This document shows, in pieces, positions 4,028 through 46,808 of a DNA stretch of 64,000 bases. A program made the position numbers and the translations under genes. The DNA comes from Elusimicrobia bacterium RIFOXYA2_FULL_47_53 (GTDB taxonomy: Bacteria; Elusimicrobiota; Endomicrobiia; Endomicrobiales; XYA2-FULL-47-53). Each line of letters opens with the position of its first letter. The first letter of the stretch is position 1. The stretch spans positions 11,295 to 75,294 of the forward strand of contig MGVE01000009.1 in assembly GCA_001800315.1 (NCBI GenBank), read 5' to 3'. A model generated the notes under the pieces. That model made no database searches and was not told the DNA's origin. It was given only the letters and a program-made list of their open reading frames with translations.

Positions 4028-5056
4028 TTATTTTTGCCTCAATGCTTTTTTTATTTCTCCGGGCTTAAAAACCCCGTTCTCGGTTATTATGGCCGTTATC
4101 AGCCCGGCGGGCGTGACATCAAAAGCCGGGTGGCAGGCTATCGTGCCCTTGGGAGCTATGAGCCTGTCGTTTACATAAAGCACTTCCTTTACCGAACGCT
4201 CTTCTATGACTATCCTGCCGCCGTTTGAGGTTTTTGGGTCAATCGTTGAAACCGGCGCGGCCACATAAAATGGGACTTTATGGTATCTGGCAAGTATTGA
4301 CAGAGAGTAGGTGCCTATCTTGTTGGCGGCGTCGCCGTTGGCGGCTATGCGGTCGGCTCCGACTATAACAGCTCCAATCCCGCAGGTTTTCATAATGTGG
4401 CCCGCCATATTGTCGGTCAAAAGCCTGTAAGGAATCTTCTCCTGTTTCATTTCCCACGCGGTGAGCCTGGCTCCCTGAAGATAGGGGCGGGTTTCATCAA
4501 CATATACCAATTTAATTTTGCCCTGGCTGTAGGCGGAGCGGATAACTCCAAGAGCGGTGCCGTAACCGGCCGTCGCGAGAGCGCCCGCGTTGCAGTGGGT
4601 AATAACCATGGAATTTTTCTTAAGAAGCGCGGCGCCGTAGCTCCCGATCCTTTTGTTTACAGAAATATCTTCGTCGTAGACCTCAAGAGCCTCCCTGACA
4701 AGCCGGGACTTGAGCCCCTCGGGAGTTCCCGAGAAACCGTCCACGATATCTTCAATTCTCTTAAGGGCCCAGAAAAGATTAACGGCTGTCGGCCGGCTTG
4801 AGGCAAGCCTTCCGGCGGCTTTCAAAAGATAGGATTTCATGGCCGAAAGAGACTTAAAATCTTTTTCAAGCGCCGCGAGCGCCATGCCAAACGCCGCCGC
4901 CACGCCAATAGCGGGCGCGCCGCGGATAATCATATCCTTAATGGCACGGTAAACGGATTCATAATTCCCGCATTCCACATAGCGTATCCTGGAAGGCAGG
5001 AGCAGCTGGTTTAATATGTATACTCTGTTGTTTTTCCAATAAAGCGTTCTTATCAT
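4028..5056 (-). CDS. mtnA: Methylthioribose-1-phosphate isomerase (eIF-2B alpha/beta/delta-like family)
   Basis: 342 aa with full-length MtnA-like sequence ([13 protein letters not shown]..., [18 protein letters not shown]). Confidence 0.88.
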
Positions 5057-6131
5057 AAATCGCCTCTATCCGCTGTGATTACCCTAAACTTTTTTTGAAC
5101 GGCTGAAAAATTTAATGACTTCTTGAAATGGAATGACTACATTTTTTACAACGAGATTCTTCGCCCGCCACAGCGGACTCAGAACGACGGCGTTTTGTGG
5201 ATTCCGGACAAAACATTTTAAGCTATAAGTTTTAAGTTGTAAGTTATAAGTGAACGACGCTTCTGTGTCGTCATCCCAGAGGCAGTAATCTGGGATCCAC
5301 TTCCTTGAGTCATTAACAAAATGCCATTGTTCTGGATTCCGGACGGAAACTCTCCGGAATGACGGCGTGTAGCGCTTCTGTGTCGTCATCCCAGAGGCAG
5401 TAGTCTGGGATCCAGCCTTTACAGACTGTGTGGCAATGTCATCCTGAGCGTTAGCGAAGGATCGCGAAGTTATTGTTACCATAGAGATGCTTCACTGCGT
5501 TCAGCATGACAGCAACTCAAAGTCCTCGTTAATGGCAGTTATGACACAGTCTGTTAGTCTTACTTCTGGATTCCGGAGTGGCGGCCCAATGCTTTGAATA
5601 AAATCAGCCGGCCTCCCAGGCGAATGCGAAGCATTCTTCACCCGTCCAAAGACGGGTGATTTTTCGCCGCGGGACAGAAACTCTCCGGAATGACGGCACA
5701 GTTGTGACTTAAGCCTTTAAGGGGCTTTTGGGTTGCGTACCCCTTCCGAGCCGATTATGAGCAAAAGAATTTTTGGAGGCCTTCAGTCTTGCCTGTTTGA
5801 CCTGCCGACAAGGCAGGGAGTTTGCAAGACTGCCAAAATACTTTTGCGAATGGCTCGCGGGTGGCGAGTTTCTTTATTATCGTTCTTTGCTCGCCCAAAG
5901 AAAGTTAAAATCAGGTGTCGGGAATGACGACACTTTACGGAACGCGCGGCAAGCTGCGCAGCTACGGAATCATTTTTACTACGGGATTGCTTCTCTCCCT
6001 GCGGGAGATCGCAATGACGCGGCCTTATTAAGGCTCTTGGACAGCCGTGCCAAAACTATCTTTAAAATAAAAACGCAAAACGCGAATAAAATCTATCCGC
6101 ATCTTGCCGTCAAACCGCCAGCCGAAATGCT
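5057..6131. repeat. Coding-free mosaic of nested stem-loop repeat modules (locus A of six)
   Basis: 1075 bp with no credible ORF. It is built from modules that recur at 20410-20624, 25904-26274, 40410-40761, 45985-46593 and 54520-54810. See findings for module coordinates. Confidence 0.9.
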
Positions 6132-6395
6132 CTAAGGGATGGTTTCCAGGACTTCCTCAAGCTCTTCTTCCGAACGGCCGCATATCTCTATTGTTTTTTC
6201 GCGGCCCCGCTCGCCTTTTCTCAGCAGGACCATGCTTTTCTTCACTTCAAAAAACTCGGCAAGAAACTCGCAGAGCTCGCAGTTCGCCTTTCCTTCAACC
6301 GCGGGCGCCGATACTTTTACCCTTAAGATGGAGCCAATTCTTCCGACAACCTCGTTTTTCTTTGCGTTAGGGATTACTCTGACTTTTATTATCAT
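6132..6395 (-). CDS. DUF167 / YggU family protein
   Basis: 87 aa. VRVIPNAKKNEV...LRVKVSAPAVEGKAN resembles the YggU family, and it sits in the conserved yggS-proC neighbourhood. Confidence 0.75.
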   Translation of the reverse strand: MIIKVRVIPNAKKNEVVGRIGSILRVKVSAPAVEGKANCELCEFLAEFFEVKKSMVLLRKGERGREKTIEICGRSEEELEEVLETIP

Positions 6396-6415
6396 TAAAT
6401 AAATACCCCTTTTGC

Positions 6416-7222
6416 TTACCTGGCTAGTTCGCCGGCTCTTTTTTTAGCTTTTTTCATCGCGTTTTTAAATATCCCGGGAAGTTTGTTTTCCTGCATATAT
6501 TTTACCGCGGCCTCGGTCGTTCCGCCAGGAGAAGTTACCTTCATCCGCAGCTCGCGCGCGGAGACGCCGTCGCCCCGGAGCATCGCGGCCGCGCCAGCGA
6601 TCGTCTGCCTGGCAAGCTCCGAAGCCGTTTTGCCGTCCAGACCCATTTCTAAGCCGGCCTCTTCCATTAACTGAGCGACATAAAAAATATACGCGGGCCC
6701 CGAACCCGAAAGAGCGGTAACGGCGTTAAGTTTTGATTCGGGAACAATGACGGCAAGCCCCGCGGAGGCAAATATTCCCCGGGCGGCGCTTAAGGCTTTT
6801 TTGCCGGCGGATTTCCCTTTTGAAATTCCGGCCGCGCCCATTGAAACCAGCGCGGGAGTATTAGGCATGACCCTGACAACAGCGGTTCCTTCAGGCAAAT
6901 AGTTTTCAATGAACTTAGTGGTTATGCCTGCCGCTATTGAAATAACCAGGCTGTCTTTGTTTATGAACCGGCCGCAATAGCTCAGAAGTTCTTCCATCTG
7001 CTGAGGCTTGACGGCCAGCAGAACAATTTTGCCCTCGGCGCAGGCCCTGGCCGGATCAGGCTCAACCGCGACACCGTATTTTTTGCGGATATAAGCGAGC
7101 CTTTTGCCGTTAATATCCGAAGCTAATATTTCGGATCTTTTATATTTAGCGTTACTTAAAAGCGCGTTTATTACGGCCTCAGCCATATTTCCTGCGCCTA
7201 TAAAAACTATTTTCTTACCCAT
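6416..7222 (-). CDS. proC: Pyrroline-5-carboxylate reductase
   Basis: 268 aa. N-terminal Rossmann motif FIGAGNMAEA and C-terminal P5CR dimerisation region (SPGGTTEAA). Confidence 0.93.
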   Translation of the reverse strand: MGKKIVFIGAGNMAEAVINALLSNAKYKRSEILASDINGKRLAYIRKKYGVAVEPDPARACAEGKIVLLAVKPQQMEELLSYCGRFINKDSLVISIAAGITTKFIENYLPEGTAVVRVMPNTPALVSMGAAGISKGKSAGKKALSAARGIFASAGLAVIVPESKLNAVTALSGSGPAYIFYVAQLMEEAGLEMGLDGKTASELARQTIAGAAAMLRGDGVSARELRMKVTSPGGTTEAAVKYMQENKLPGIFKNAMKKAKKRAGELAR

Positions 7223-9956: not shown

Positions 9957-10043
9957 ACCGTTCACCTCCTGTTGGATTTTATAAACTGCTAAAAGTGCCG
10001 TATTGACGCCTCCATTTTCACGGAACAGCGGGCGCAAATTAAA

Positions 10044-10070
10044 TTAGCACTCGCTTTTAGCAAGTGCTAA
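10044..10070. promoter_or_regulatory. CIRCE operator (HrcA binding site)
   Basis: TTAGCACTC-GCTTTTAGC-AAGTGCTAA matches the CIRCE consensus TTAGCACTC-N9-GAGTGCTAA with one mismatch. It sits between the promoter and groES. Confidence 0.9.
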
Positions 10071-10099
10071 TTATAACAAAATCTATAAAATTTTGTCAA
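10070..10099 (-). promoter_or_regulatory. Sigma-70-type promoter of groES-groEL
   Basis: The minus strand reads TTGACA (10099-10094), N18, TATAAT (10075-10070), with TGT immediately upstream of the -10 (extended -10). It abuts CIRCE. Confidence 0.8.
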
Positions 10100-10200
10100 G
10101 CGGCTGAAAAAATATTTTTTCAGCGCCCCTGCCGCGAAAAATCCCGACGGAAAAATAAATATTTTAAAAAACTGCCCGCGTTTCGCGCAACCCGGCTATT

Positions 10201-10941
10201 TCAAAATTTTATGCCAAGCCCCATATTGTACCCCATGCCGCCGTTCACAAAACCGCCGCCAATATGCAGGTATGTGAAAGGAACCAGGCTTAAATTTATT
10301 CCCGCTTCGGCCCTGACGCCGCTGGCGCTGCCCGTAAGGCTCGTAATGGAAGAATCGGGAGTAATCGTGGTGGAATCCATGCCGACAAGCACATATGGAT
10401 CAACGATCGGTATGTTAAATGAAATTACACCGGCCGCGCTGATTGTCGCGGCTTTAAATTTGTTGGCATCCGACTTTACATCCAGGTTATTATACAGGAC
10501 CTGAACGGAAATGGAAGGAAAAAGCGGTATATTTTCCTTAAGAAGGCCGTATCTTATTCCCAAGCCAGTCATATTCGCGCCTGAATATGCCACATATCTG
10601 CCTATAAGGTCCAGCTTGCCCGGCAGGCCTATTTCAGCCTGCAGCATCGGCAAAGCTATAGCGTCAAGACCTGCGGCCTTGACTATCTTATTGTCATCTG
10701 AAACCGATTTGCCGGATATATGAATTCCTACATCAAACCCCGGAAACCCGAGCGCCTTGCCCTGATGGCAGGCCGCGCCGCCGATAACCGCCCCGAGGTC
10801 AGCGGCGAAACTGTCCAGATTCTTCTGAATAAGGCTTGTTGCTCCTGTTAAATTGCTTGTGAATTCATCAAAAAATGACGCTGAAAACCCTCTTCCGGCT
10901 ACAAAAAACATTAAAATTACCATCAACATGAGCTTTTTCAT
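10201..10941 (-). CDS. Predicted outer-membrane beta-barrel protein (uncharacterised)
   Basis: AGGAGG then ATG at 10941. Signal peptide MKKLMLMVILMFFVAGRGFSA, Gly/Ala-rich alternating pattern, C-terminal ...GLGIKF (aromatic terminus). Confidence 0.6.
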   Translation of the reverse strand: MKKLMLMVILMFFVAGRGFSASFFDEFTSNLTGATSLIQKNLDSFAADLGAVIGGAACHQGKALGFPGFDVGIHISGKSVSDDNKIVKAAGLDAIALPMLQAEIGLPGKLDLIGRYVAYSGANMTGLGIRYGLLKENIPLFPSISVQVLYNNLDVKSDANKFKAATISAAGVISFNIPIVDPYVLVGMDSTTITPDSSITSLTGSASGVRAEAGINLSLVPFTYLHIGGGFVNGGMGYNMGLGIKF

Positions 10942-20409: not shown

Positions 20410-20624
20410 TCCTCAGCTGCTTCACGGGGTTTGACGGTTAAGACCTCACCGGATATGAAAGTCACCCTGAACGAAGTGAAGGGTCTCGTTTTTCATCCAA
20501 CGACGAGATTGCTTCTCTCCCTGCGGGAGATCGCAAGGACGGCGTTTGTGGATTCCGGACAGAACACTTCCGGAATGACGGCCTGTCCGAGATGGTGAGG
20601 CGCATCCTTAACGGAGGATTAGGA
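20410..20624. repeat. Stem-loop module mosaic, locus B
   Basis: Modules at 20461-20507 (GTCACCCTGAACGAAGTGAAGGGTCTCG...ACGACGAG), 20505-20540 (GAGATTGCTTCTCTCCCTGCGGGAGATCGCAAGGAC) and 20547-20580 (TGTGGATTCCGGACAGAACACTTCCGGAATGACG). Confidence 0.9.
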
Positions 20625-25903: not shown

Positions 25904-26274
25904 TAATATCCTGCGAACCCGGAGGATGAGGCAATCTCGTAGTCAAAACGATTCCGTAGTTGCGGAGCTTGCCCTGCGTTTAAGGTAGTAGCGCGGCTTG
26001 TCGCGCGTTCCGTCGGATGCCGCCGTTCCGACACCTGATTTTAACTTTCTTTGGATGCGCAAAGAAAGTTAATAAAGAAACGCACCCCTAAGGCTATTCG
26101 TTTGAAATATTTCGGCACCTGCGGAACTCGCCCGCCAAAAGACCGGCGGACTCAGACAGTCCTCGCTGAAATCCCCGAAATATTTCTCACTCATGGACAG
26201 CCTTAAAGGGGAGCAGAAGGACAAATACTTGAATTATTTGTTTTGCTGCGAAAGCCAGTCTGAATGCGACAACG
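25904..26274. repeat. Stem-loop module mosaic, locus C (mostly inverted relative to locus A)
   Basis: 26031-26081 is the reverse complement of 5868-5918 (AACTTTCTTTG..GCGCAAAGAAAGTTA palindrome). 25950-25985 matches 5933-5970 inverted. Long hairpin at 26104-26186. Confidence 0.85.
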
Positions 26275-27642
26275 CTATTTTGGTTTTTCGCTCAATGATT
26301 TTGAGTATTCCTTTACGCCGTTGCGTCCGTTCGCCTTAACCCAGTAAAGCGCCTGATCGGCGGCCGACAACAGCTCCTCCATTGAAGGGCCGTCGTCAGG
26401 AAAATGGCTTACTCCTATGCTGATAGTGGCTTTGAAAATATCGCTCCCGCGCGAGAATTCCGCTTTTGCCACGGCCGCCCTGATGCTTTCGGCAAGAGCC
26501 AGGGTTTCCCTGGGCGTTATCATATGAAGCAGAATCATGAATTCCTCGCCGCCGTAACGGCCGACAAGGTCGCCGGGCCTCGCTTTGGCGGTAAACAGTT
26601 TAGCGAGAGACGCGAGCACCTCGTCTCCCACCACATGGCCGTAGGTATCGTTGATCTTCTTAAAATGGTCAATATCAAGCATTATTATGGAAAATTTGGT
26701 TTTATACCTTTCGGCCCTCTTTACCTCGGCGTCAAGCCTCTCTAAGAAGTATTCCCTGCGGTGCAGCCCGGTCAGGCCGTCAACGCGCGAGCGGTCTTTG
26801 ACCTCGGCGAAAAGCCTGGTGCGCACTATTCCCAGCGCGATGAGCGGAATAAATATAGCCCCCTCTTCAAGGTAGCGCGAGGAGTAATCCTGTTCAACGG
26901 TAAGAAATATCGCGGCAAGGAATTTTCTGTCCATTTTGACGGGCCAGAAAACCACCGCGTCTTTATCTATCCATTCCGGAGGGACAAGCACCTTAGGTTC
27001 GCTTTCTTTGAAAAATTTGGATTCCTCAACAAACTCCAGCCACTGATTCTTCTGCTCCGGATTTGAGAAAAGCAGCGGCTTCCAGCGGCTTTTTTCCCAG
27101 GAAAATATCGTAATGGTTTTTATGCCGGGCCTGTCAAGCAGTATCCTCTGCAAATGCTCTATGACCTCGCTTGTTTCCATGTGTTCCACCAGTTCCCTGC
27201 CGAGCACATAGAGTTTGTTAATTTTTTCAATCTCTCTTTCAAATTCCTTCCTCTCGCTTTTCAGCCTCGTGACATCGGACTGTAGCTGGGTGAGCCGTTC
27301 AAGAGCGGGGAAATAGCGCCTTCTGAAATCCTGTTCTTCAAGCGTTTTAACCCTCTTGAAATAAAACGGTATCACAACGGTGCCTATCAGAAACACGCAA
27401 AGCGAGGCACTTGTAAGGTTCAAAATAAAACCGCGATCCAGCAACAGCAGGGCCAGGGCGGCGCCGTTTAGAATGACAGCCGCCGACGGCAGGGCGAAAG
27501 AAGCAAACAGGCTGGCCAGAATAAGAAAGTATACCCAGACCTGCCTGAATTCACTTGAAGGCAGAACAAAGTATACCGCTCCGAAAAGCACGGTTATTAA
27601 AAAAACTTTAATGTACCTTAATATTTTATCTTTTGATCCCAT
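26275..27642 (-). CDS. Membrane-bound diguanylate cyclase (GGDEF)
   Basis: 455 aa. Multiple N-terminal TM helices. RPGDLVGRYGGEEF gives GGEEF plus an RxxD I-site at canonical spacing. Confidence 0.9.
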   Translation of the reverse strand: MGSKDKILRYIKVFLITVLFGAVYFVLPSSEFRQVWVYFLILASLFASFALPSAAVILNGAALALLLLDRGFILNLTSASLCVFLIGTVVIPFYFKRVKTLEEQDFRRRYFPALERLTQLQSDVTRLKSERKEFEREIEKINKLYVLGRELVEHMETSEVIEHLQRILLDRPGIKTITIFSWEKSRWKPLLFSNPEQKNQWLEFVEESKFFKESEPKVLVPPEWIDKDAVVFWPVKMDRKFLAAIFLTVEQDYSSRYLEEGAIFIPLIALGIVRTRLFAEVKDRSRVDGLTGLHRREYFLERLDAEVKRAERYKTKFSIIMLDIDHFKKINDTYGHVVGDEVLASLAKLFTAKARPGDLVGRYGGEEFMILLHMITPRETLALAESIRAAVAKAEFSRGSDIFKATISIGVSHFPDDGPSMEELLSAADQALYWVKANGRNGVKEYSKSLSEKPK

Positions 27643-27644
27643 AA

Positions 27645-29021
27645 TTACGCCGATATCACGACTTTGTTTCTTCCGTCGGACTTTGCCCTGTAGAGCGCCT
27701 CGTCCGAAAGGCTCAGAAGTTCTTTGTTGCCCTCTATTTTCTCGGCCAGTTTCGCCACTCCCACGCTGACGGTGATGCGCGCCTGCACGGGCTTAAAGCT
27801 CTCCACGGGCAGGAAAAACTTTTCGGTTTCCACCGCTTTTCTTATTGACTCGCAGACTTTAAAAGCCTCTCTTATGTCGGTCTGCATCATCATCACGGCG
27901 AACTCTTCTCCGCCGTAGCGGCACAGAAAATCGGTTTCTCTGAAGCGGTGCCTCAAAAGGTCCGAGAGCTGCCGCAAAACCGCGTCTCCCGCCATATGGC
28001 CGTAGGTATCGTTGATATCCTTAAAATGGTCTATGTCTATCAGGGCGACGCTCAACTGCAGCTGGTGCCTGTTGGACCTCTGGATTTCTTCGTCTAAGCG
28101 TTCCTTGAAATAGCGCTGGACATAAAGCCCGGTCAACCCGTCGGTTATCGCCAGCTCCTGGGTGCGTTTATACAGAAATACATTGTTAAGCGCCAGAGAG
28201 GCTATGCCGCCCAATATGGAAAGCAGGCGCAGGTCGGCTTCCGAAAATATCTCCGGCTGAGGAGAGGTTCCCTCAAGCATCCCCCACATATCATTTTCTA
28301 TTTCAAGCGGGATGGCGATCATTGACTGAAATTTGGGTTTTTCTATGCTGAACCTGGTGTCTTTGGAAAGATCGCTTATCATAAGCGGCAGTTTCTGCCG
28401 TTTGATATATTTCGCGAAAAGATCCCCCTGCATATTTCTCCTGATTTTCCACGAGCCCCTGCCGATAAACCTTGCCGCGGATTCGGTCAGAAGCGGCAGA
28501 ATTTTTTCTTCCTGAAGCGTTGTGCAGAATATCTGCACCATCTGGCCGAGAGATTTGTAGTCCGATATCTGTTTGGAAAGCCCGATTCTTTTATTCTTTA
28601 TGTCGGACATCTCCGAGACGAAATAAGACAACTTTGTCTCCAGCACCTCCTCCTGCTCGCGCATATTGTTCTGCTTATCCACATATTCCTGCTGATAATT
28701 CTTTATCGCGAAAAATACGCCCCAAAGCCAGACGACTTCCAGAAAATAGATGAGCGGATAGTAGCTCGTATGTGTCAGGACAACGCACATCATGCCTATC
28801 AGCGTCGCCAGGCCGAGCAGGATACTGCCGTAGAGCAGGCCGGAAAAGAGAAACAAAACGGTGAGAATAATCGCGCTAAGCGGAAAAATCAGAATGCCGG
28901 GCTGGGAAGATTTGATGAGGTTGTAAATCCAGACAAGAAAAGCAAAGCCGGAAAGTATGGGAACCGCGAGGCTTTGAATTATTTCAGAAACTACCTGTTC
29001 TTTTATCTCTTTAGAATCCAT
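27645..29021 (-). CDS. Membrane-bound GAF + diguanylate cyclase (GGDEF)
   Basis: N-terminal TM helices, a GAF-like region, and RETDFLCRYGGEEF (GGEEF plus I-site). The first ATG is at 29021; the track start at 29033 is TTG. Confidence 0.88.
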   Translation of the reverse strand: MDSKEIKEQVVSEIIQSLAVPILSGFAFLVWIYNLIKSSQPGILIFPLSAIILTVLFLFSGLLYGSILLGLATLIGMMCVVLTHTSYYPLIYFLEVVWLWGVFFAIKNYQQEYVDKQNNMREQEEVLETKLSYFVSEMSDIKNKRIGLSKQISDYKSLGQMVQIFCTTLQEEKILPLLTESAARFIGRGSWKIRRNMQGDLFAKYIKRQKLPLMISDLSKDTRFSIEKPKFQSMIAIPLEIENDMWGMLEGTSPQPEIFSEADLRLLSILGGIASLALNNVFLYKRTQELAITDGLTGLYVQRYFKERLDEEIQRSNRHQLQLSVALIDIDHFKDINDTYGHMAGDAVLRQLSDLLRHRFRETDFLCRYGGEEFAVMMMQTDIREAFKVCESIRKAVETEKFFLPVESFKPVQARITVSVGVAKLAEKIEGNKELLSLSDEALYRAKSDGRNKVVISA

Positions 29022-29077
29022 ATTTTGAATCAATTAAAAAACATTTTCCGGACTGAGAATTTCGGTTAAACAGGTTC

Positions 29078-29245
29078 TTTAAACCCGAATTTTGCAATAG
29101 AAGCGAGTACCGAGGCGAGCGAGGCCGAGGCTTTTGTGACGGAAAAAGTGAAAGCGATGCAGGGACATCGGTTGAGCTTTTTGCGGATACAAAAGTCCGA
29201 CATCGCTCGACGAATACCGCTCTCTATTGCAAAATTCGGGTTAAA
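29078..29245. repeat. 168-bp long-palindrome intergenic element, copy 2
   Basis: TIRs TTTAAACCCGAATTTTGCAATAG (29078-29100) and CTATTGCAAAATTCGGGTTAAA (29224-29245). Aligns with 588..755. Confidence 0.8.
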
Positions 29246-29299
29246 CTGACTCTATTCTAATCAATAAATATTATATTATCAAGGCATTTCTAAATGTTT

Positions 29300-33140: not shown

Positions 33141-35858
33141 CTATTTTATTATAGCGATTTTCCCTATTTTCTTCTGGGCGCGGTTGTCCGGGTTGACTAT
33201 ATAATAAATATATACACCGGAGGCGACCTTCTCCCCACTATTATTTTGTGCGTTCCAGACTACAAGGCCGTCGCCGTCAGCTTCGCTGAATTCCGCGACA
33301 AGTTCGCCGGCGATATTGAATATATTTATATCGGCTTTTGCGGTTAGGTCCTTAAATACTATTCCGGCGCCATATGAGGTCCTGTCAAATTCTCCCCCGC
33401 TGCCAGGCTTGTAAGGGTTCGGAAAGACCTTAACATTATCCAGATCGGAGGAAGGCGCAATTACGCTTACAAGAGCGAACATTGAAAAATGGTTTATCTG
33501 CACCGAAACAGTCTTTGCGGCTTTGTCCAACGCGTATTCGGGTGATACTTGTACCCATTCCTGGCTTGCTTCATCAAAATTTAATATCCTTAAACCCTCT
33601 GCGCGCACGGGTGGTGCGGTATTGTCTATAATCTCATTATTGTCTGTGTCAGGATAGGCAAGCGTAAGCGTCATAGGTTTGTTGAATACAGAGACAGTTG
33701 AGCCGCCGATGTCGTAGTACTTCAGGTCAACGATGGAATCTTCCATCAAAATCTTATTCTTCAGCTTTAACTTATCAGCGCCAACTACAAGCTTTGCTCT
33801 CATTGCGGGTGCCGCGCTGTTTTTGGCATTTGCGTCAATTATTATATAGCCGTCGCAGGGAACCGCCCCTTCCGGAAGCAATACCTTAACCTCGCCAAAT
33901 GAAAGGTTGTCGGCTTTCTGTTCCTGCTGGCCTGATGTATTCGCGTGAATGAGCGTTATACCTGCAGGCAGCGGCTGGGTCCCGGCAGTTGCATATACAT
34001 TGCCGGTATCAATCCCGCTGATATTATAGGCGCAAATTGAATACTGATAAGTCGTGGCAAGCGATAACCCCGAATTACAATAAGTGTTAACATCCTGTTC
34101 TAAATCTGCCACAGCTGACCAAGTTGAGCCATCCATAGTTCGCTTTATCTTATAACCAGCAGCCGCACTTTTATCCCAGCTTAAAACAACACAGTGCCTG
34201 CCGTCAGTTGAGGTTTTGAAATTCGCAGGCGCTTGAGCCAGCGTAACAGCTTCCATCTGCGCTGCTGTTCCCTGTCCGTAATCGTTGTAAGGCTTAATAT
34301 ATCGCTGGTATTTTGTGTTTGGCGTAAGGCCGGACTCAAGCCAGGAAGTAGTGGCCTTATCCAGCTCCTGAAGCAGTGTATTGTCAGCTTTTGAGAATAT
34401 GCGGTATCCGCTAACCACGGCGGCATCGGTACTGTTCCATACCCAGGTTACGCTTGCGTCAGTCGCAAGCACAGCAGAAGCGCCGGATATCTCAGGAAAT
34501 GGTATGGGCGAAGTTACATCAAGCGATGCAGATGTGTTTGATGGCAGGTAATAGTAGCCGTCGCCGGCATATTCTACGGAAATATTGAATATATTCTGGT
34601 CAAGGTGTATCTCGGGATAAACTGTTGCTGTGCCGCTGCTGTTTGTTATGGCGGTATAGGATGTGTTGTTTATGGTAAATACTATTACCTGGTTGGCAAG
34701 TTCAGCTGAATCAAGCTTGGTAAGCGTTGCCTTAAATATCGCGGTTTCATGCTGCGGTACGGTAGTATCACCGGAATAGACAAGTTGTGTCTGGTTTGGC
34801 ACTACAGATACAATAGAGTTGGTTCTCGTTTCTTCCGGTACGCTTGGAAAATATACGGTTGCGTAATTTGTAATAGACGCTCCTGAAGCCATGCTCCCCT
34901 TTGCCGAAACAGTAATATCAAATTTTCCGCCTTGCCTTGAGCCGACCTCGCCTTCGTTATCCATATATACCGTTAAAAGCCGGGTATCGTCATCGTACTC
35001 ATACTCAAAAGTCGCGGCAGTTTCGGAACTTGTAAGGTAGTTTATGCGTTTGCAGTTGGAAACGATAACAGAAGAATCATCAATGTCCGTATCCAAAATA
35101 TCCGCAACATACACGCCATAGGCGATGCCTTCCCCTTCGTTTTCAAATTCCACGGTATAGGTGAGCGTCTGACCTGCAGAAATGCTGCCGTCAGGGCCGT
35201 ACATTATGTTAGGGTCGTGGGCAACACCAATAATACCAAGTATTTTTTTCCATATTTCGTCTTTCCCGTCACATTCATCTTTATTTTTATCTCTATTACT
35301 AAATATCTTTTCAAGATCCACTTCTTCACCATTATGGGTTACATGTATATCCAAATGAGAACCATCGCCATGTTCCGAGTACACACTTCCCGTATTTCCC
35401 ATCTCTGCAATTTGTGCGCCGCCAACAACCTCACTATCCCTCGATGGCAAGATACTATTATATTTTAAATGCCTGTATGATGATTTCCAGCCTCCGCCAT
35501 GATTAATATCAATATAATTCCCTTGCGCACGTTTTTTTGCATCATTTACTCCAGCATAGTTCGGATTAGTATACACGGTAGATTTATCCTCATCATTATC
35601 TAAATCATTTACAACCTCTTCCACAATACCATCTCCAAGAGAATATACTGGATCAGTAATAATACCATCAATATCCGTTGACCCATGTATTTTATTCTCA
35701 TGATTTACCCTTGGTTCATTAAAGCCACTTGTTATTTGATGATTAGAACCCCTATCTGTAGGCCAAAACACTTCAAAATCAGGCTGTGGAATATTCCCAG
35801 CAAAAAGAATTGAAGCTGGAATAATCATTAGAACAAAAAGCACTATTTTGTTTTTCAT
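33141..35858 (-). CDS. Secreted M23 peptidase with CARDB/DUF11-like, Ig-like and two FN3 domains and a T9SS-type (FlgD-Ig-like) C-terminal domain
   Basis: 905 aa. Signal peptide; M23 motifs HGSTDID (HxxxD) and SHLDIHV (HxH); FN3-like WVWNS...GYRIF and LSWDKS...GYKIKR; C-terminus VFPNPYKPG...INIFNIAGELV...ASGVYIYYIV...GKIAIIK. Confidence 0.8.
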   Translation of the reverse strand: MKNKIVLFVLMIIPASILFAGNIPQPDFEVFWPTDRGSNHQITSGFNEPRVNHENKIHGSTDIDGIITDPVYSLGDGIVEEVVNDLDNDEDKSTVYTNPNYAGVNDAKKRAQGNYIDINHGGGWKSSYRHLKYNSILPSRDSEVVGGAQIAEMGNTGSVYSEHGDGSHLDIHVTHNGEEVDLEKIFSNRDKNKDECDGKDEIWKKILGIIGVAHDPNIMYGPDGSISAGQTLTYTVEFENEGEGIAYGVYVADILDTDIDDSSVIVSNCKRINYLTSSETAATFEYEYDDDTRLLTVYMDNEGEVGSRQGGKFDITVSAKGSMASGASITNYATVYFPSVPEETRTNSIVSVVPNQTQLVYSGDTTVPQHETAIFKATLTKLDSAELANQVIVFTINNTSYTAITNSSGTATVYPEIHLDQNIFNISVEYAGDGYYYLPSNTSASLDVTSPIPFPEISGASAVLATDASVTWVWNSTDAAVVSGYRIFSKADNTLLQELDKATTSWLESGLTPNTKYQRYIKPYNDYGQGTAAQMEAVTLAQAPANFKTSTDGRHCVVLSWDKSAAAGYKIKRTMDGSTWSAVADLEQDVNTYCNSGLSLATTYQYSICAYNISGIDTGNVYATAGTQPLPAGITLIHANTSGQQEQKADNLSFGEVKVLLPEGAVPCDGYIIIDANAKNSAAPAMRAKLVVGADKLKLKNKILMEDSIVDLKYYDIGGSTVSVFNKPMTLTLAYPDTDNNEIIDNTAPPVRAEGLRILNFDEASQEWVQVSPEYALDKAAKTVSVQINHFSMFALVSVIAPSSDLDNVKVFPNPYKPGSGGEFDRTSYGAGIVFKDLTAKADINIFNIAGELVAEFSEADGDGLVVWNAQNNSGEKVASGVYIYYIVNPDNRAQKKIGKIAIIK

Positions 35859-35874
35859 AAGACCTATTTACTTA

Positions 35875-37179
35875 TTAATAAGCTCCATTAATATAAAACA
35901 ATTTACTCCTATTTTGATTAAAAGCGGTCTCGTAAGTAATAATTGAAGAACCATTGTCTGATGATTGAAAAACGCTACACAATCCAGCAAGATTTACCGA
36001 CCATATTTCCTCTCCACTTATATCGTACATTTCAATAACACTGCCTACGCTCTTAGATTTTACTGGATACTTTAACACAACAACATTTTTATCTTCTAAT
36101 GTTAAGAGATAATTGCCATTTATTTCATACCTAAAATCATTGTTATCAATTTTAGTCAAAATGCTTTCATTTTTATTTAGAATCAATATCTTCTCATTTA
36201 CCCCTCTTTTATCAATATTTTTATTTGCTTCAAATGATGTAAGATAATGTTTTCCCAGTCTATAACGAGTTTCATCAATCGGAGAAATAAAAGTTTCTCC
36301 TTTAAAATATGTCTTCTTTTTTTTCGATGTTTTTTCAACCAATATTCTCTTTTTGCCAATTTCGTATACTCTAAACACCCATTCCCGAGAATGCAGTTTT
36401 GGGGAGTCAAATATTGAACTGTCTATACTTGACAGATAGTTACCATTTACTTCGGAAATAATTCCAGCAACACTCATCACAACGCTTTTATCAATTGCAT
36501 ACAAATCACTATCTTTGATTATATATCGCCCATCTTTTGACATCCATGCCTGACTCTTAACATCTTTCCTATTTATTTTCCATAAAATATCACCTTTTGA
36601 ATTTAATAAATAATAATCGTCTTTCGGATCGCCAGATTCAGCAAGAACAGGGCTAATAAATATGTGTTTTCCATCCGGCGAAATAGCAGGATTACCCATT
36701 AAATCCAAAGACCACAACAAATCACCTTTTTCAGTAAAGAATAGTACTTTCCTTACATATCTTTCATCAAATATTTTCATTGACTTTTCTTCAACACTTC
36801 CAACCATTCTTGATTCTTGGACAATCTCACTCACTGTACATGCAACATATGCACCGTTTTTACTTATGACTGCATTGCTAATTACATAAACACCAGTCGA
36901 GTTTTTGTACTCAAATTCCCAAAGAACATTGCGATGACTATCCATTGCAATCAATTTACTACCGAAATAAGTGTTTTTCGTGCCACTATAATACATATCA
37001 TCTTTTATTGAATTAAATTGAGGTTCTATTGACACAAGGATCTTTGTTCCATCGCCACTAATTCCCATGGCATTAATTCGCGAAGGAAATTCTTTTTCCC
37101 ACAATATCCTCTCCGCAGAAAAAGCGCAAAAAGGCATACCAAAAATAAACACAAACAGTAAAAACGATTTCATTTTCAT
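35875..37179 (-). CDS. Secreted beta-propeller-like repeat protein (PQQ/BamB- or TolB-like repeats), uncharacterised
   Basis: 434 aa. Signal peptide ...FCAFSA and repeated S.DG..I / GD.LW motifs (ISGDGTKILVS, ISKNGAYVAC, ISPDGKHIFIS, MSKDGRYIIK). SD AGAGGAG. Very AT-rich. Confidence 0.55.
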   Translation of the reverse strand: MKMKSFLLFVFIFGMPFCAFSAERILWEKEFPSRINAMGISGDGTKILVSIEPQFNSIKDDMYYSGTKNTYFGSKLIAMDSHRNVLWEFEYKNSTGVYVISNAVISKNGAYVACTVSEIVQESRMVGSVEEKSMKIFDERYVRKVLFFTEKGDLLWSLDLMGNPAISPDGKHIFISPVLAESGDPKDDYYLLNSKGDILWKINRKDVKSQAWMSKDGRYIIKDSDLYAIDKSVVMSVAGIISEVNGNYLSSIDSSIFDSPKLHSREWVFRVYEIGKKRILVEKTSKKKKTYFKGETFISPIDETRYRLGKHYLTSFEANKNIDKRGVNEKILILNKNESILTKIDNNDFRYEINGNYLLTLEDKNVVVLKYPVKSKSVGSVIEMYDISGEEIWSVNLAGLCSVFQSSDNGSSIITYETAFNQNRSKLFYINGAY

Positions 37180-37191
37180 TAAAAACTCCTC

Positions 37192-40100
37192 TTAATCATG
37201 ATCTCCATCTGGATTATATGTTGGGAAAATGCCATCAGCAGCATCATTATCAAGCAGATATAAATCTGCGCTCAAAGGAGTTCCTTGAGGCAGACCCCAT
37301 AAGATTTTAAATTTTCCATTCAATTTTTTAACAGACTTTGCATCTATTAAGGATATATTCCACCGAACTACAGGACTAGAATAATAGTTATCATTTTCAT
37401 CCCAACAAGACAGATCATATTTTTTATGCTCACCTGAAGCTGCAATATAGGTACATTTTACTGGTGGGAATAGAACTATACTTTTGTTTGTTGCGGCAGC
37501 CAATCCATTATTCTTCACCTCAATAGTATAGGTAACTGTCTGTCCGGGGCTTGCGGCGCCGGGTCCAAACAGTTCAACTTCTATATCAGGTTGAGGCGAT
37601 TCGCCTATATCCAGTTTAGTCACGACAAACCACATGGATTTGGTTGTGCTGTTTTTCAATAATCCTGAAGCTGTGCCGAACATGGGGTTGTCCAGCATCA
37701 GCTTTAGCGTTATCTCTTCAGCGCTTATGGCATCGGCAAAGCCCCAACCCATGCCCGATAATCCGCCCCACTGGTAAGACAAAATAGTGAAGCCGTCCTT
37801 ATCGTATATATTGCCGGTATCGTTTATATAAACATTGGTCAGGATAGTTTTAATATTGCCCGTATATCCTCCGGCAAGCGTGCCCTGCGCCGATGTCTGC
37901 AGGAAGTTTAGTCCTGTATTTGCATATTCCTGCTGGCTATCATAGGTTAAGGAACCAACGAGGCGCAGCCTCCCGCTTGAAATGCTTCCGCCGCCCGTTG
38001 TATTAACACGGAACGACCATGTGGCAGCCAGTGTGTCGTAGGTGTTGCTGTTTGCTAAAGATTCCAAGAGGCAGCCGTCAAACGAACCGTCCACAACGCC
38101 TTCCATAACGCCTTTCAAATAGAGTTTTCTTTCAGTTGTGTTCAGATACGCCATACCATAGATTTGGCCCTGATAATTTACCCCGTCTAAAGTCCCGCTC
38201 CACGCGCCTTTATAGAAGCCCTTGTCCTTGTAGCCGCCGGTATTTATGGTAACTATAGCTATTGTGGATATATTTATACTCCCTGATAAAGTGCCACTTG
38301 CGGTAAGCGAGCCTTTTGCGGTTTTCACCAATATGGTTTCGGTAAGCTGTGATGTTGAAACATGTCCTACGGCTGAATTAGATATGCCGCTTGGCGAATC
38401 GGCTGAAACTGTAGGTACCATCTTCGTGCCAGCTTCGGCCTCAGGGTTGCCGCCGGTGCCTGCGGTAGTATTGATTGAACCTGAATAGGTTGAATTGTTA
38501 TAAAACACAGCTATCCTGCCGCCTGCACCACCTCCGGCAGAACTACCGGTATCGCCGTTGCCGCCGTTCGCGTTTATTACCCCGCTTCCAGCAAACTGAT
38601 CCGCAATAATATATATGCTTCCACCGCTTCCTCCACCACCGCCATTAGAACCTGAATGATAACCGCTAAAACCATTGGCGTTTATTGCGCCATCGTTTGT
38701 AAGAGTACCGTCAACTGTAAGTTTTACCTTGCCACCACCGGCGCCACCTAAAGCAAGACCGTTGCCGACACCGCCGCCTGAACCGAGATAGCTCGGACTC
38801 ATCATACTTCCGTAAGAGAGGCCGCCTGCTCCGCTTGATGTGCCTCCGTTTCCGCCGTAACCGCCGCCCGCACCGTCTATACCGGCTGTACCGCCACCTG
38901 CGCCTTCGCCGTTAGAATATGTAACACCGTCGCCGCCATGATATCCCATGCCGTTCACATTTATCTGGCCGCCGGAATTTATTGTAAGGTTACCGTTGAC
39001 TGTAATATCAAATTCCGGGTCTGCTGCTGAGTGGCTCACAAGACCGCCGGAATATACAGTCATATTATTCACCGTTAGCCCCGAGTTAACATAAAGCACC
39101 CCTGATGAGTTTATGCTTGCCGCGCCGGTTATATTGAACTGACCTGCGCCTATATATATAGTCGCACCGTTTGAAAGGTTCAGGTCTGCTATGGATGAAG
39201 TGCCGGAACTGTAAAATATGCCGTTGTTGTCAAGGTTAAGCGCCGACGCGGTAAGCGTTGAAGTGGATTGGAGCACGCATTTATTTTCAGCGATAATATT
39301 GTCAAATTGGCCGCAAAGATAAGTGATGCCGCCTATTTTGTTGTTATTATTTACAAACACATCGCCGTAGGATTGTGATGTGCTTTTTTTGTATATCGTA
39401 CCCGCGCCGCCGCGGTTGGCATCGTTATTACCGCTGTATGCTGAAATAGCATAAGCTGAATTGTCCGTCGTGTAATACAGCGCTATCCTGCCGCCAGCTC
39501 CGCCGCCATTGTAAGTATCTCCACCAGGCCCGCCGTTAGCTTTGATACTACCATCCCCGCTTAGAGTGTTAGCTAAAATATATACGCAGCCGCCAGAACC
39601 GCCACCGCCATAACCGGGGAAGTTTGCTCCGCCGTTTGCACCGTTTGCGGTAATTATTCCACTATTAAATATTTCGCCAGTTGCAACTATCTTTATTCTG
39701 CCGCCGCCTGCTCCCCCGCCGGCATTACCGCTTCCAACACCGCCACCGGATCCAAAATCAGTTGGATTTGCAATACTTCCATAAGATATTCCACCATAGC
39801 CGTAGGCTTCCCATGAGCGGTAAATACCTATACCTCCGACACCTCCATAACCTGCCCCACCGGCACAAGTTGCTGCAGTTCCACCGCCAGAGCCTTCACC
39901 ATTAATTATTGAAGACCCGTTGCCGCCCCGATACCCTGCGCCGTCAGCACTTATTTTACCAGTTGCACTTATTGTTATTGAGGAGCATATGAGTTCAAGC
40001 CAGCCGCTTGTGCCAGAACCGATATAAGAACGGACATTTAAGGTGCCGTCAATCTGTACAAAGCTCGCATAGGTATGGGTTCCGCTTGAAGTGTAGGTTT

Positions 40101-40302
40101 CGCCGACAGGTATGATAAGATAGTTTGTGGTATCAGTAATTACAGAGAAGCCGCTTTGCGGAAAAATCACCTGAAAGAATAGAACCGTTGAAAATAAAAA
40201 AAATCCGTAAAGCTTTTTAGCGTGCTTTACAGGATAAAACAATGCTTTGAATTTCTTATGGAAACTTGCCAACGCCTTGCACCCCACGCTCTTATCCCCC
40301 AC
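37192..40302 (-). CDS. Large secreted glycine-rich beta-helix-like protein with an internal ~190-aa duplication and a C-terminal CARDB/DUF11-like domain
   Basis: 1036 aa. Hydrophobic signal-like segment KKLYGFFLFSTVLFFQVIFPQSG. Two modules with GGAGGGRI(K/A), GGGGSGG and ANGG.G motifs. C-terminal PGQTVTYTIEVKNNG. The start codon is uncertain (GTG at 40302, no early ATG). Confidence 0.65.
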   Translation of the reverse strand: MGDKSVGCKALASFHKKFKALFYPVKHAKKLYGFFLFSTVLFFQVIFPQSGFSVITDTTNYLIIPVGETYTSSGTHTYASFVQIDGTLNVRSYIGSGTSGWLELICSSITISATGKISADGAGYRGGNGSSIINGEGSGGGTAATCAGGAGYGGVGGIGIYRSWEAYGYGGISYGSIANPTDFGSGGGVGSGNAGGGAGGGRIKIVATGEIFNSGIITANGANGGANFPGYGGGGSGGCVYILANTLSGDGSIKANGGPGGDTYNGGGAGGRIALYYTTDNSAYAISAYSGNNDANRGGAGTIYKKSTSQSYGDVFVNNNNKIGGITYLCGQFDNIIAENKCVLQSTSTLTASALNLDNNGIFYSSGTSSIADLNLSNGATIYIGAGQFNITGAASINSSGVLYVNSGLTVNNMTVYSGGLVSHSAADPEFDITVNGNLTINSGGQINVNGMGYHGGDGVTYSNGEGAGGGTAGIDGAGGGYGGNGGTSSGAGGLSYGSMMSPSYLGSGGGVGNGLALGGAGGGKVKLTVDGTLTNDGAINANGFSGYHSGSNGGGGGSGGSIYIIADQFAGSGVINANGGNGDTGSSAGGGAGGRIAVFYNNSTYSGSINTTAGTGGNPEAEAGTKMVPTVSADSPSGISNSAVGHVSTSQLTETILVKTAKGSLTASGTLSGSINISTIAIVTINTGGYKDKGFYKGAWSGTLDGVNYQGQIYGMAYLNTTERKLYLKGVMEGVVDGSFDGCLLESLANSNTYDTLAATWSFRVNTTGGGSISSGRLRLVGSLTYDSQQEYANTGLNFLQTSAQGTLAGGYTGNIKTILTNVYINDTGNIYDKDGFTILSYQWGGLSGMGWGFADAISAEEITLKLMLDNPMFGTASGLLKNSTTKSMWFVVTKLDIGESPQPDIEVELFGPGAASPGQTVTYTIEVKNNGLAAATNKSIVLFPPVKCTYIAASGEHKKYDLSCWDENDNYYSSPVVRWNISLIDAKSVKKLNGKFKILWGLPQGTPLSADLYLLDNDAADGIFPTYNPDGDHD

Positions 40303-40349: not shown

Positions 40350-40409
40350 ATATTTGTGCGCCCCCTAACCCTCAGACAGCACCTGAGGCGTGACGGCGAA
40401 GATTTTACC

Positions 40410-40761
40410 GTACCTGTAAAGTCACACTGAACGAAGTGAAGGGTCTCGTTTTTTATCCAACGACGAGATTCTTCTCTCCCTGCGGGAGATCAGAACAACG
40501 ACAACGACACAACGAGATTGCTTCGTTCCTCGCAATGACATCCTTTTGTGGATTCCGGACAGAACAATTCCGGAATGACAGCGTGTGGCGCTTTTGTGTC
40601 GTCATACCAGCGGACAGACTGTGTGGCAATGTCATCCTGCATGACAACAACTCAAAGCCCTCGTTAATGGCAGTTATGACACAGTCTGGGAAGCTGGTAT
40701 CCAGTGGTTTTTCTGGATCCCAGACTGGACATTTCCGGGATGACAGACTGGCTTTGTGATA
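40410..40761. repeat. Stem-loop module mosaic, locus D
   Basis: Modules at 40421-40467, 40465-40500 and 40547-40580. The arms ATACCAGC (40604-40611) and GCTGGTAT (40693-40700) enclose a 75-nt palindromic unit at 40614-40688. Confidence 0.9.
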
Positions 40762-43629: not shown

Positions 43630-43781
43630 AGTTACCCTACGAATATGATTTTACATTTTTTATATGTCTTTGGCAACAAAACGCAAAATACGGATAGACT
43701 AATTCTCAGACAGAGCCGGGGCTAAGACTGGGCTTAAAATCGGGCTTTTTCAATTGACTCAAATATTGTATAATCTGCCCT

Positions 43782-45984: not shown

Positions 45985-46593
45985 GGCGGGGTTATTCTGA
46001 TTATAACTTTCTTTGAACGCGCAAAGATAGTAAGTAAAGAAACTTGCGACGCCTCACCATCTCGGACCGGCCGTCATTCCAGAAATGTTCTGTCTGGAAT
46101 CCAGAACAATGGCATTTTATTAATGACTCAAAGAAGTGGATCCCAGACTACTACCTCTGGGATGACGACACAAACTAGTCTGTCATCCCTACCCCCGATT
46201 GCGGCACTTGAGGGCAAACTCCAGCAGGGATCCAGAAAAACCTCTGGATACCAGCTTCTGCTGGTATGACGACACGAAGAAGTTCGCCGTTCACTTATAA
46301 CTTGAGTCAATTGAAAAAGTGTTTCAGGCCGTCTTTGCGAGGAGCGCAACGACGCGGCAATCTCGTCGTTCCCGACGGAAAAGCGAGATTGCTTCACCCT
46401 GCGGGCTCGCAATGACAGGGTCTAATTAAGGGTTTTTCAATTGACTCAACTTACAACTTACATCTTAAAACTTATTACTTAAAATATTCTGTCCGGAATC
46501 CACAAACGCCGTCATTGTGATCTTCCGCAGGGAGATAATATTCTCGTCGTTTGAGGAAAAACGAGACCCTTCACTTCGCTCAGGGTGACTTTA
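45985..46593. repeat. Stem-loop module mosaic, locus E (mostly inverted copies)
   Basis: 46071-46172 is the reverse complement of 5263-5365 (10 mismatches in ~101 nt by hand). 46228-46273, 46511-46551 and 46543-46589 are inverted copies of modules seen at loci B, D and F. Confidence 0.9.
46302..46449. mobile_element. 148-bp MITE-like unit bounded by 18-20-bp TIRs (TTGAGTCAATTGAAAAAG / GGGTTTTTCAATTGACTCAA)
   Basis: Left TIR 46302-46319, right TIR 46430-46449 (reverse complement, 1-2 mismatches). The interior carries hairpin modules and has no coding capacity. Confidence 0.6.
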
Positions 46594-46660
46594 TATGTCT
46601 GATGAAATCTTCACCGGCAGGCATGGGCTCTATCCGAGGATTAGGGGATCTGGAGTATGC

Positions 46661-46689: not shown

Positions 46690-46808
46690 CTCACAGTCAA
46701 GCCGAATTGAAAACTATAACAATATATGTATGCCGAGGTGTCCGCCACTACTGCGGGCGGATTTGCTTCACCAACTGCTTCCGCAGTTGGTTCCTTGAAT
46801 ATTATAGA

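Follow-up and report, generated by a model that had tools for sequence, protein, structure and literature searches.

Six intergenic regions within a 64,000-nt stretch of contig MGVE01000009.1 from Elusimicrobia bacterium RIFOXYA2_FULL_47_53 (the whole stretch is called the window in the following) are likely clustered CGTC-tagged arrays of repetitive extragenic palindromes (REPs), organized like the Neisseria intergenic mosaic elements (NIMEs), with a small, single-domain endonuclease of the GIY-YIG type and the Ssn family as their probable partner. A first-pass annotation, made from the letters alone, had described these regions as coding-free mosaics of reusable stem-loop modules and had likened them to the REP-containing bacterial interspersed mosaic elements (BIMEs), which are mobilized by REP-associated tyrosine transposases (RAYTs). 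The modules, which it considered unusually diverse, largely reduce to one hairpin architecture plus decayed copies, copies with an insert in the loop and other small elements. Many unrelated hairpins are thus not involved, while the additional small elements do exist.

The window was compared with itself in both orientations by a repeat search and a blastn-short self-search. The six loci and the six example modules of the first-pass annotation were recovered at, or within 1–3 nt of, the positions where it had placed them, but some of its copies are partial or diverged: 20505–20540 ends GCAAGGAC, 40465–40500 is degenerate, and 40421 reads GTCACACTG. Matches between loci span 16–107 nt, occur in both orientations and in varied order, and reach E-values from 6e-3 for the shortest (16–18 nt) to 1e-31; all module partners are intergenic and none lies in coding DNA. 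Together, the six arrays comprise 2,970 nt, equivalent to 4.6% of the window and close to the earlier estimate of about 5%. The pentamer GTCAT/ATGAC, said to flank almost every hairpin module, is indeed the joint most enriched 5-mer of the arrays, with 30 occurrences (10.1 per kb) vs. 1.29 per kb elsewhere.

Coverage by other copies was determined against the window plus approximately 76 kb of additional same-organism DNA, 139.6 kb of non-redundant sequence in all. Array R1 (5057–6131), located between mtnA (4028–5056, minus) and a DUF167 gene confirmed by Pfam (6132–6416, minus), is 79% covered and holds CGTC-tagged hairpins along with decayed copies, hairpins with filled loops and further small repeats. 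Its section 5564–5910 has no partner within the window, and same-organism copies elsewhere match it at 96% and 89% identity. The corresponding coverage values are 67% for R2 (20410–20624), 83% for R4 (40380–40761), 90% for R5 (45985–46620, upstream of tRNA-Leu at 47032–47120) and 82% for R6 (54520–54810). R3 (25904–26274) contains modules as the first-pass annotation said, but it is a mosaic to a much lesser degree: it is weakly repetitive, only 15% covered as opposed to 67–90% for the other five, and without an intact GTCAT hairpin. It does carry a palindrome with a 13-bp stem, TTAACTTTCTTTG..CAAAGAAAGTTAA, at 26041–26072.

The core unit starts with a (C/T)GTC head, continues with AT-N-CC-N-G-N as one arm of an 8-bp stem, a loop (4, 8 or 9 nt) and the complementary arm, and closes with a CCA tail; written as one string, this gives (C/T)GTC-AT.CC.G.-loop-.C.GG.AT-CCA. 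Among the 71 perfect hairpins of the window (stem of at least 7 bp, loop of 3–14 nt), eight have such 8-bp AT.CC.G. stems, and all eight lie in arrays with GTC on the 5′ side and CC on the 3′ side. The arrays contain nine occurrences of the strand-symmetric pattern AT.CC.G..C.GG.AT, and the remaining 61 kb of the window contain none. When units were chosen by their flanks alone (GTCAT...ATCC), they fell into three sharp loop classes of 4, 8 and 9 nt, and nearly all of them were fully complementary.

Since the pattern published for the hairpin targets of Ssn nucleases, termed SRMs (Chenal et al. 2025, Nat Commun 16:2388; PMC11893778), misses these hairpins, a census based on the architecture was carried out over the 139.6 kb. 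It returned 66 units (67 listed, one of them a spurious match in coding DNA). The stem families are ATCCCAGA (15 units), ATACCAGC and ATTCCGGA (10 each), ATTCCTGC (8), ATTCCAGA (6), ATTCCCGA (5) and ATCCCTGT (3), plus rarer ones. In the 67 listed units, GTC is preceded by C (46 units), T (19) or A (2), and 64 tails read CCAG (37), CCAC (17) or CCAT (10). Loops measure 4 nt in 21 units, 8 nt in 17 and 9 nt in 28, of which the 4-nt class alone has the canonical CGTC geometry; filled loops of 35–106 nt were found in eight genuine units and in the spurious one. Stems have 8 bp, with a few of 7 or 9 bp, and begin with A and T throughout.

Compensating changes demonstrate that the stems are kept as stems. 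In two alignments of distinct sequences, 97.8% and 98.9% of the stem cells are paired, with 12 and 13 cells, respectively, showing double-sided changes at stem positions 3, 6 and 8, and none of 500 shuffles came up to the values observed. Positions 1, 2, 4, 5 and 7 (A, T, C, C and G) are invariant or nearly so. Folded as single-stranded DNA (ssDNA), the units as drawn reach z-scores from −2.1 to −4.8.

Hairpins of this kind have a known enzymatic counterpart. SRM hairpins flank ssnA, a gene for a 94-aa single-domain GIY-YIG protein, across bacteria; SsnA binds the hairpin exclusively as ssDNA, not as RNA, and cuts a few nucleotides upstream of it; binding depends above all on the C after the palindrome, and cleavage on the GTC triplet in front of it (PMC11893778). 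Both of these critical elements, the GTC before the palindrome and the C after it, are kept in the Elusimicrobia hairpins. The RAYT implied as partner by the first-pass annotation accordingly gives way to a putative nuclease of the Ssn type, for which a hairpin-bracketed gene is present in sibling bins. A metagenome scan with a loop-containing 17-nt hairpin pattern returned 120 loci, mostly chance matches; five of the 120 carry modules of the window, and one of these five (L148, from a 367-kb contig) carries the nuclease gene, at 2075–2362 on the minus strand, equivalent to 10001–10288 of locus L250. NCBI lists its product, P0001, under the name GIY-YIG nuclease [Elusimicrobia bacterium RIFOXYA1_FULL_47_7]. 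The protein comprises 95 aa and a single domain with PF01541 as the only Pfam family in the precomputed annotation, has 4,935 homologues at E ≤1e-10, and is encoded in the three sibling bins GCA_001800475.1, GCA_001800425.1 and GCA_001800205.1.

At L148, GTC-ATCCCAGA..TCTGGGAT-CCA hairpins stand 2 nt past the stop codon and 7 nt before the start codon of the nuclease gene as an inverted pair, and window-type module arrays surround it. The distance between these hairpins and the two gene ends is otherwise put at 6–12 nt. In the wider context of L250 (7768–11423), ssn and the hairpin arrays lie inside a Tad/type II secretion-like pilus operon, where ssn sits between a T2SSE ATPase gene and two T2SSF (membrane-platform) genes and where the intergenic spaces are filled with window-type modules. 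We infer that the ssn contig and the window belong to the same genome because of shared organism naming, near accessions and shared modules. The window proteins are named Elusimicrobia bacterium, one of them RIFOXYA12_FULL_49_49, and the accession numbers OGS09215.1 (a window protein) and OGS09234.1 (the nuclease) differ by 19. Modules common to the window and other same-organism loci extend up to 300 nt at 94% identity, and the ssn locus itself has window modules.

The arrangement is also found in other phyla. An inverted hairpin pair with the GTC ends pointing outward brackets homologues in Ignavibacteria (L254), Moraniibacteriota (L255) and Tardiphaga (L257), the stems being identical on both sides of one gene and different between genomes, and at least one hairpin lies beside the nuclease gene in L021, L054 and L199. 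These brackets therefore reproduce the published hairpin–ssn association with independent data. At 1780–2000 of L021, a Thioalkalispiraceae bin, five CGTC-type units with the stems ATGCCGGA, ATTCCGGC, ATACCGGC and ATTCCGGA are grouped in 200 nt beside the GIY-YIG gene, and mixed-stem small arrays around ssn are therefore not peculiar to Elusimicrobia. By analogy with SsnA, the hairpin is probably the recognition site of an Ssn-family GIY-YIG endonuclease, and P0001 would be expected to cleave the Elusimicrobia hairpins. SsnA lowers transformation and recombination of incoming repeat-bearing DNA (PMC11893778); in Elusimicrobia, Ssn may affect recombination, transformation or transcription and may have a role in hairpin spread.

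The hairpin alone reaches considerably further. A scan of one genome per species for GGATTCCGGAC..TCCGGAATGAC found at least 113 loci, while approximately one chance match is expected as estimated from the size of the collection. Among the matches listed are members of the candidate phyla radiation, Chloroflexota, Nitrospirota, Bacteroidota, Zixibacteria, Elusimicrobia and Alpha-, Gamma- and Deltaproteobacteria, and several of the bins listed hold multiple hairpin copies. Common to the other phyla is the hairpin of about 30 nt only, without the longer modules.

Several observations weigh against the proposed explanation of the arrays. No GIY-YIG gene was found in the window, in about 6 kb before its start or in about 8 kb past its end, and no contig joins the window to the ssn contig. 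P0001 has a sub-threshold match only in NCBIfam, and a PDB sequence search gave no match. Furthermore, ATCCCAGA is the sole stem family that brackets the Elusimicrobia nuclease gene, and one enzyme may not serve seven or more stem families, because SsnA activity in Neisseria is abolished when the stem sequence is changed and the structure kept (PMC11893778). Not one of the GTCAT..ATCC hairpins of the window and of L148, L250 and L185 is matched by the published SRM pattern, HGTCWYN(0-2)YYVSBRHN(0-5)WNVSBRGN(0-2)RNCYNB. This pattern gave three unrelated matches in the window vs. 0.17 in shuffles and none in the other three loci, but it does match the Neisseria NTS sequences used as positive controls and two hairpins of L021. 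The short-stem modules GTCATTGC..GCAATC and GTCACCCT..AGGGTC, which have a GTC head and fold weakly, may be something else. In addition, approximately 10–33% of five arrays and 85% of R3 are without a detected copy, and no insertion or deletion polymorphism indicating mobility was found among the assemblies.

Could the arrays nevertheless be classical GTAG-tagged REPs or BIMEs that are moved by a RAYT, a transposase of the Y1 HUH type, encoded elsewhere in the genome? This is very improbable. Hairpins with a conserved unpaired head, clustered in both orientations between genes, would fit, but the head is (C/T)GTC instead of GTAG, and GTAG..CTAC units are absent from the arrays. The E. coli K-12 RayT query found no homologue in the window or the other same-organism loci (about 140 kb non-redundant, 220 kb in total, which is part of the genome), nor in the loci of other organisms examined. 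The first-pass annotation, which had seen no RAYT gene in the window, was correct on this point, and the absence now extends to these loci. According to the survey by Di Nocera, De Gregorio and Rocco (2013, BMC Genomics 14:522; PMC3733652), RAYT genes are never flanked by CGTC units, and the gene that is bracketed here encodes a GIY-YIG protein.

Several of the long modules are core hairpins with extra DNA in the loop, and on folding, the same outer stem closes in these filled units. A filled hairpin on the minus strand at 5570–5694 reads GTC ATTCCGGAG, a 104-nt insert and CTCCGGAAT CCA (−32.3 kcal/mol, z −3.9), and recurs as a whole at L120 2195–2319; its ‘empty’ counterpart, GTC ATTCCGGA gagtttccg TCCGGAAT CCA with a 9-nt loop, is found at 5336–5363 (minus). 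Likewise, GTC ATACCAGC and GCTGGTAT CCA enclose 81 nt at 40601–40700 (plus) and only the 4-nt loop agaa at 46248–46270 (minus), where the geometry is that of CGTC-1/dRS3 and the ssDNA fold has −7.5 kcal/mol and a z-score of −4.8. A third filled unit (46182–46231, plus) has ATCCCT, a 35-nt loop and AGGGAT CCA. The fourth (54572–54649, minus) consists of ATCCCTGT, a 59-nt loop and ACAGGGAT CCA, and its 59-nt insert recurs at three further loci, enclosed by ATTCCTGC/GCAGGAAT stems.

The GGAA loop of the hairpin at 40601–40700 hosts a nested element at 40615–40688 that resembles a MITE (a miniature transposable element bounded by inverted repeats). It measures 74 nt, reads CAGACTGTGT...ACACAGTCTG, and has 10-bp terminal inverted repeats and a 3-bp GGA duplication, that is, both hallmarks of a MITE (terminal inverted repeats and target duplication). 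A CAGACTGTGT copy occupies the equivalent site, again with a GGA duplication, at L222 4254–4317. A further MITE-like copy of 132 nt with a TTA duplication (5422–5553) is split by back-to-back short hairpin units at 5438–5466 and 5487–5510. No parent insertion sequence was found for the CAGACTGTGT element.

Module boundaries likewise favor hairpins: 40% of the matching-segment ends lie within 4 nt of a hairpin edge vs. 16% expected for random array positions. Half hairpins joined to other modules occur as well, for example at 5194–5251 (minus), where GGATTCCGGAC plus loop is fused to an AT-rich module. Based on the boundaries at hairpin edges, the nested inserts and the half hairpins, the mosaics look built by repeated exchange and insertion at hairpins. 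In the most likely course, arrays would accumulate hairpins of several stem families, exchange between hairpins would place module boundaries at hairpin edges, and nested insertions, including the small MITE with its terminal inverted repeats and 3-bp duplication, would enter the loops.

Some of these features could also point to a graveyard of ordinary MITEs that were mobilized by DDE transposases, the hairpin arms being the MITE ends. The nested element with its 10-bp inverted repeat and 3-bp duplication is one clear case, another element of about 165 nt with 23-bp inverted ends exists elsewhere in the window, and filled hairpins do resemble a cargo between inverted repeats. However, the stems vary while the GTC/CCA flanks and stem positions 1, 2, 4, 5 and 7 are fixed, and this is the opposite of transposase-recognized inverted ends beside variable target duplications. 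Most units have 23–28 nt and no cargo, the architecture is kept across many phyla, and no transposase gene was seen beside the arrays, so we regard MITEs as quite an unlikely origin of the arrays as such. The element of about 165 nt occurs at 588–759 and 29079–29250 of the window and at L185 1077–1249, with terminal inverted repeats of approximately 23 bp (TTTAAACCCGAATTTTGCATTAG ... CTAATGCAAAATTTGGGTTTAAA) and 77–91% identity, and it resembles a MITE that has no relation to the CGTC hairpins.

A bolder extension of the proposed pairing can be formulated, to which we assign a small but appreciable chance. The hairpin–ssn–hairpin cassette itself would be a current or recent mobile element resembling an insertion sequence (IS), with the GIY-YIG nuclease in the place of the transposase, and the solo hairpins, in their hundreds, would be its non-autonomous derivatives. 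Arrays would grow as ssDNA-extruded hairpins serve both as cut sites and as preferred landing sites, which would explain the nested loop inserts and the boundaries at hairpin edges. If true, this would be a new spread mechanism for small palindromic repeats and would answer how CGTC REPs multiply without a transposase, a question open since 2013.

The hairpins might also be kept mainly as RNA elements, be it as terminators, mRNA stabilizers or small RNAs, in which case the arrays would be regulatory regions. Arrays do lie between genes transcribed in the same direction, and some modules have terminator-like hairpins with T-runs, such as the insert of 5570–5694, where the hairpin at 5638–5659 (plus strand) is followed by a T-run. 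Many REPs are transcribed as argued by Di Nocera et al. (PMC3733652). There is one promoter-like match as well, CTTACA-17-TAAAAT, in the AT-rich module (..CTTATAACTTACAACTTAAAACTTAT..) that lies at 5215–5251 on the minus strand, points towards mtnA and recurs inverted at 46449–46485 (plus strand), within a copy that spans 46449–46506. Its copies at L148 235–275 and 1855–1893 stand 5–9 nt and about 45 nt upstream of two minus-strand start codons, and the module may be a portable promoter carried by the arrays. Against a main function in RNA, the core units lack a T-run and are found in either orientation inside a single array, tRNA-Leu (47032–47120) is the sole Rfam match in the window at the gathering threshold, SsnA acts on ssDNA and not on RNA (PMC11893778), and the GTC and C flanks, being oriented, agree with DNA recognition by a protein. 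We therefore hold this alternative to be unlikely, while effects on RNA are compatible with the arrays as nuclease-associated REPs in the form of a side effect.

There is virtually no chance that the arrays are an assembly artefact or hide coding sequence in a non-standard code, both of which the first-pass annotation had named as possible grounds for rejecting its modules. Contigs do break in arrays, with ends often falling inside them, one contig joins R3 to another locus, and gene callers put open reading frames (ORFs) in R1. However, at least six independent assemblies, drawn from the three sources NCBI, JGI and ENA, contain the window sequence either unchanged or with at most three mismatches, so that an artefact of one assembly does not explain the arrays. 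The matching contigs include the NCBI bins GCA_001800235.1 and GCA_001800455.1, several JGI Rifle groundwater metagenomes and ENA assemblies. The modules vary in their order and are found on either strand, and the ORFs within arrays (5084–5482 minus, 5773–6135 plus, 40436–40759 plus and 54492–54839 plus) have no Pfam match and are inconsistently called. The interval between mtnA and the DUF167 gene is accordingly without a credible ORF, as the first-pass annotation had maintained.

Differences between contigs were inspected as possible evidence of mobility, and three candidates were set aside. The difference between L001 and L003 is a copy-number change of a 137-bp tandem unit. This unit lies within another hairpin array about 4.1–4.5 kb before the window start (L001 19146–19560), L001 has one copy more than L003, and either copy-number variation or assembly collapse may account for it. 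The one difference between L250 and L251 that was inspected by alignment turned out to be a scaffolding N-gap. Finally, the JGI contig Ga0208373_1000635 (L120 1–4827) follows the window to 26253 in R3 and then continues in a different locus with HMGL-like, CDP-OH transferase, phosphatidylserine decarboxylase and TPR genes that is rich in window-type modules; three other contigs stop at 26156–26240 in R3. This junction is either a true rearrangement or a chimeric join and was not taken as evidence of transposition.

With regard to the remaining individual units, the ATCCCAGA family is represented at 5270–5296 (plus) by GTC ATCCCAGA ggcagtaa TCTGGGAT CCA with an 8-nt loop (ssDNA fold −6.5 kcal/mol, z −3.1), whose stem family is the one bracketing ssn in L250. 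The units at 5385–5411 (plus) and 46140–46166 (minus) share its stem and loop length. Units with the ATTCCGGA stem and a 9-nt loop are also found at 20552–20579 and 40552–40579 (both minus), a unit with the ATTCCAGA stem and a 9-nt loop at 46073–46100 (plus), and a unit with one G-T pair, GTC ATCCCGGA aatgtccag TCTGGGAT CCA, at 40717–40744 (minus). Two short-stem relatives correspond to modules of the first-pass annotation. The one at 5986–6018 (minus) is its GATTGC..GCAATGAC module and consists of GTC ATTGC, a loop with the inner hairpin TCTCCC..GGGAGA, and GCAAT C (ssDNA z −2.2), with further copies at 20507–20541, 40517–40539, 46388–46416 and 54707–54737. The other, at 20461–20484 (plus), is its GTCACCCTGAACGAAGTGAAGGGTCTCG module and reads GTC ACCCT gaacgaagtga AGGGT CTC; its folding is not significant (z +0.1), and further copies lie at 40421–40444 and 46566–46589 (minus).

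A further short element is shared by 43742–43762, 46802–46826 and 46957–46977. The 17-mer TTTTTCAATTGACTCAA occurs in five exact copies at 43746–43762, 46302–46318 (reverse complement), 46433–46449, 46809–46825 (reverse complement) and 54754–54770, two of which form the 10-bp inverted ends of a 114-nt segment (46306–46445). Outside the arrays, the G+C content at 34001–38000 is 0.37–0.42 compared with approximately 0.48 elsewhere; the section extends over the genes at 35875–37179 and 37192–40302 and may be acquired DNA. Two adjacent GGDEF-domain genes (26275–27642 and 27645–29033) share a 64-nt stretch of 86% identity (26618–26681 and 27979–28042) and look like tandem paralogues.

Taken together, these results place the pairing of hairpin and nuclease, for which biochemical characterization exists only from Neisseria and Wolbachia, in a groundwater lineage of Elusimicrobia that is uncultivated. 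As the published SRM pattern misses the hairpins described here, surveys probably underestimate how widespread the Ssn–hairpin system is. At least seven covarying stem families and three loop sizes next to one detected nuclease gene provide a natural test of the recognition stringency of Ssn, and the filled and empty hairpin pairs, together with the MITE in a loop, are cases for testing loops as hot spots of insertion or recombination. For genome annotation, the consequence is that such arrays yield spurious ORFs and break metagenome contigs.

In comparison with known systems, an integron attC array was considered and rejected, as no RYYYAAC .. GTTRRRY pairs are present in the arrays and no cassette ORFs have a Pfam match; a CRISPR-like reading of the arrays was rejected as well. 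The REP, BIME and REPIN systems of E. coli and Pseudomonas with their RAYTs share extragenic palindromes, an unpaired conserved head, mosaics and a cognate gene flanked by its own repeats with the arrays, but they combine a GTAG head with a Y1 HUH transposase, whereas a CGTC head is combined with a GIY-YIG nuclease here. The REP analogy of the first-pass annotation hence holds formally, with the CGTC-tagged super-family as the place of the hairpins, while the closest mosaic is the Neisseria NIME (PMC1797815) and not the E. coli BIME.

According to Di Nocera et al. (PMC3733652), most REPs belong to the GTAG-tagged or the CGTC-tagged super-family. CGTC REPs are described there as having a CGTC/TGTC (or CCTC) head, an 8–9-bp stem starting with AT and a CCA tail, with loops of 4 nt in family 1, of 5 nt in families 2–4 and of other lengths in Bradyrhizobium. 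CGTC-1 includes dRS3, CGTC repeats are clustered in Neisseria and Wolbachia, and these REPs are apparently without a dedicated transposase. The census units agree in head, stem and tail and, in one of the three loop classes, in the 4-nt loop; they resemble CGTC-1 in their head, 8-bp AT stem, CCA tail and 4-nt loop class, in having several stem families per genome and in the lack of a RAYT. They differ from the CGTC REPs described there by their loops, most of which have 8 or 9 nt and some 35–106 nt, and by their grouping, which applies to nearly all Elusimicrobia units but is rare outside Neisseria and Wolbachia. CGTC repeats are reported there from five phyla, and Elusimicrobia are not mentioned in the sections consulted. 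The CGTC hairpin class also takes in the Neisseria dRS3/NTS and the Rickettsia RPE-4 and RPE-6 repeats.

In NIME arrays, dRS3 palindromes (ATTCCCN8GGGAAT) flank more than 100 families of repeat segments, with segment lengths of about 50–150 bp, and such arrays are said to be absent outside Neisseria (Bentley et al. 2007, PMC1797815; also Parkhill 2000). The Elusimicrobia arrays are alike in being intergenic, in alternating small palindromes with segment families of 20–200 nt, and in their shuffled content with other elements inserted. The difference is that many Elusimicrobia segments lie inside a split hairpin, whereas NIME segments lie between two complete ones. The exact dRS3 sequence does not occur in the window and occurs once in the 139.6 kb of same-organism DNA (L185 1283–1302); the unit that contains it, GTCATTCCCGCGGAAGCGGGAATCCAG at L185 1280–1302, is nearly identical to the Neisseria NTS/dRS3 consensus.

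With respect to the Ssn system itself, the ATCCCAGA, ATTCCGGA and ATACCAGC stems and the longer loops fall outside the published pattern, and the Elusimicrobia hairpins are not SRMs by that definition. The 28-nt NTS, CGTCATTCCCGCGMAVGCGGGAATCYRG, contains dRS3 (PMC11893778). The likeness to NTS and its nuclease lies in GTC-palindrome-C with the same fixed nucleotides, in a protein of 95 aa (P0001) next to the 94 aa of SsnA, in a gene bracketed by the hairpins, and in the high copy number of the repeat.

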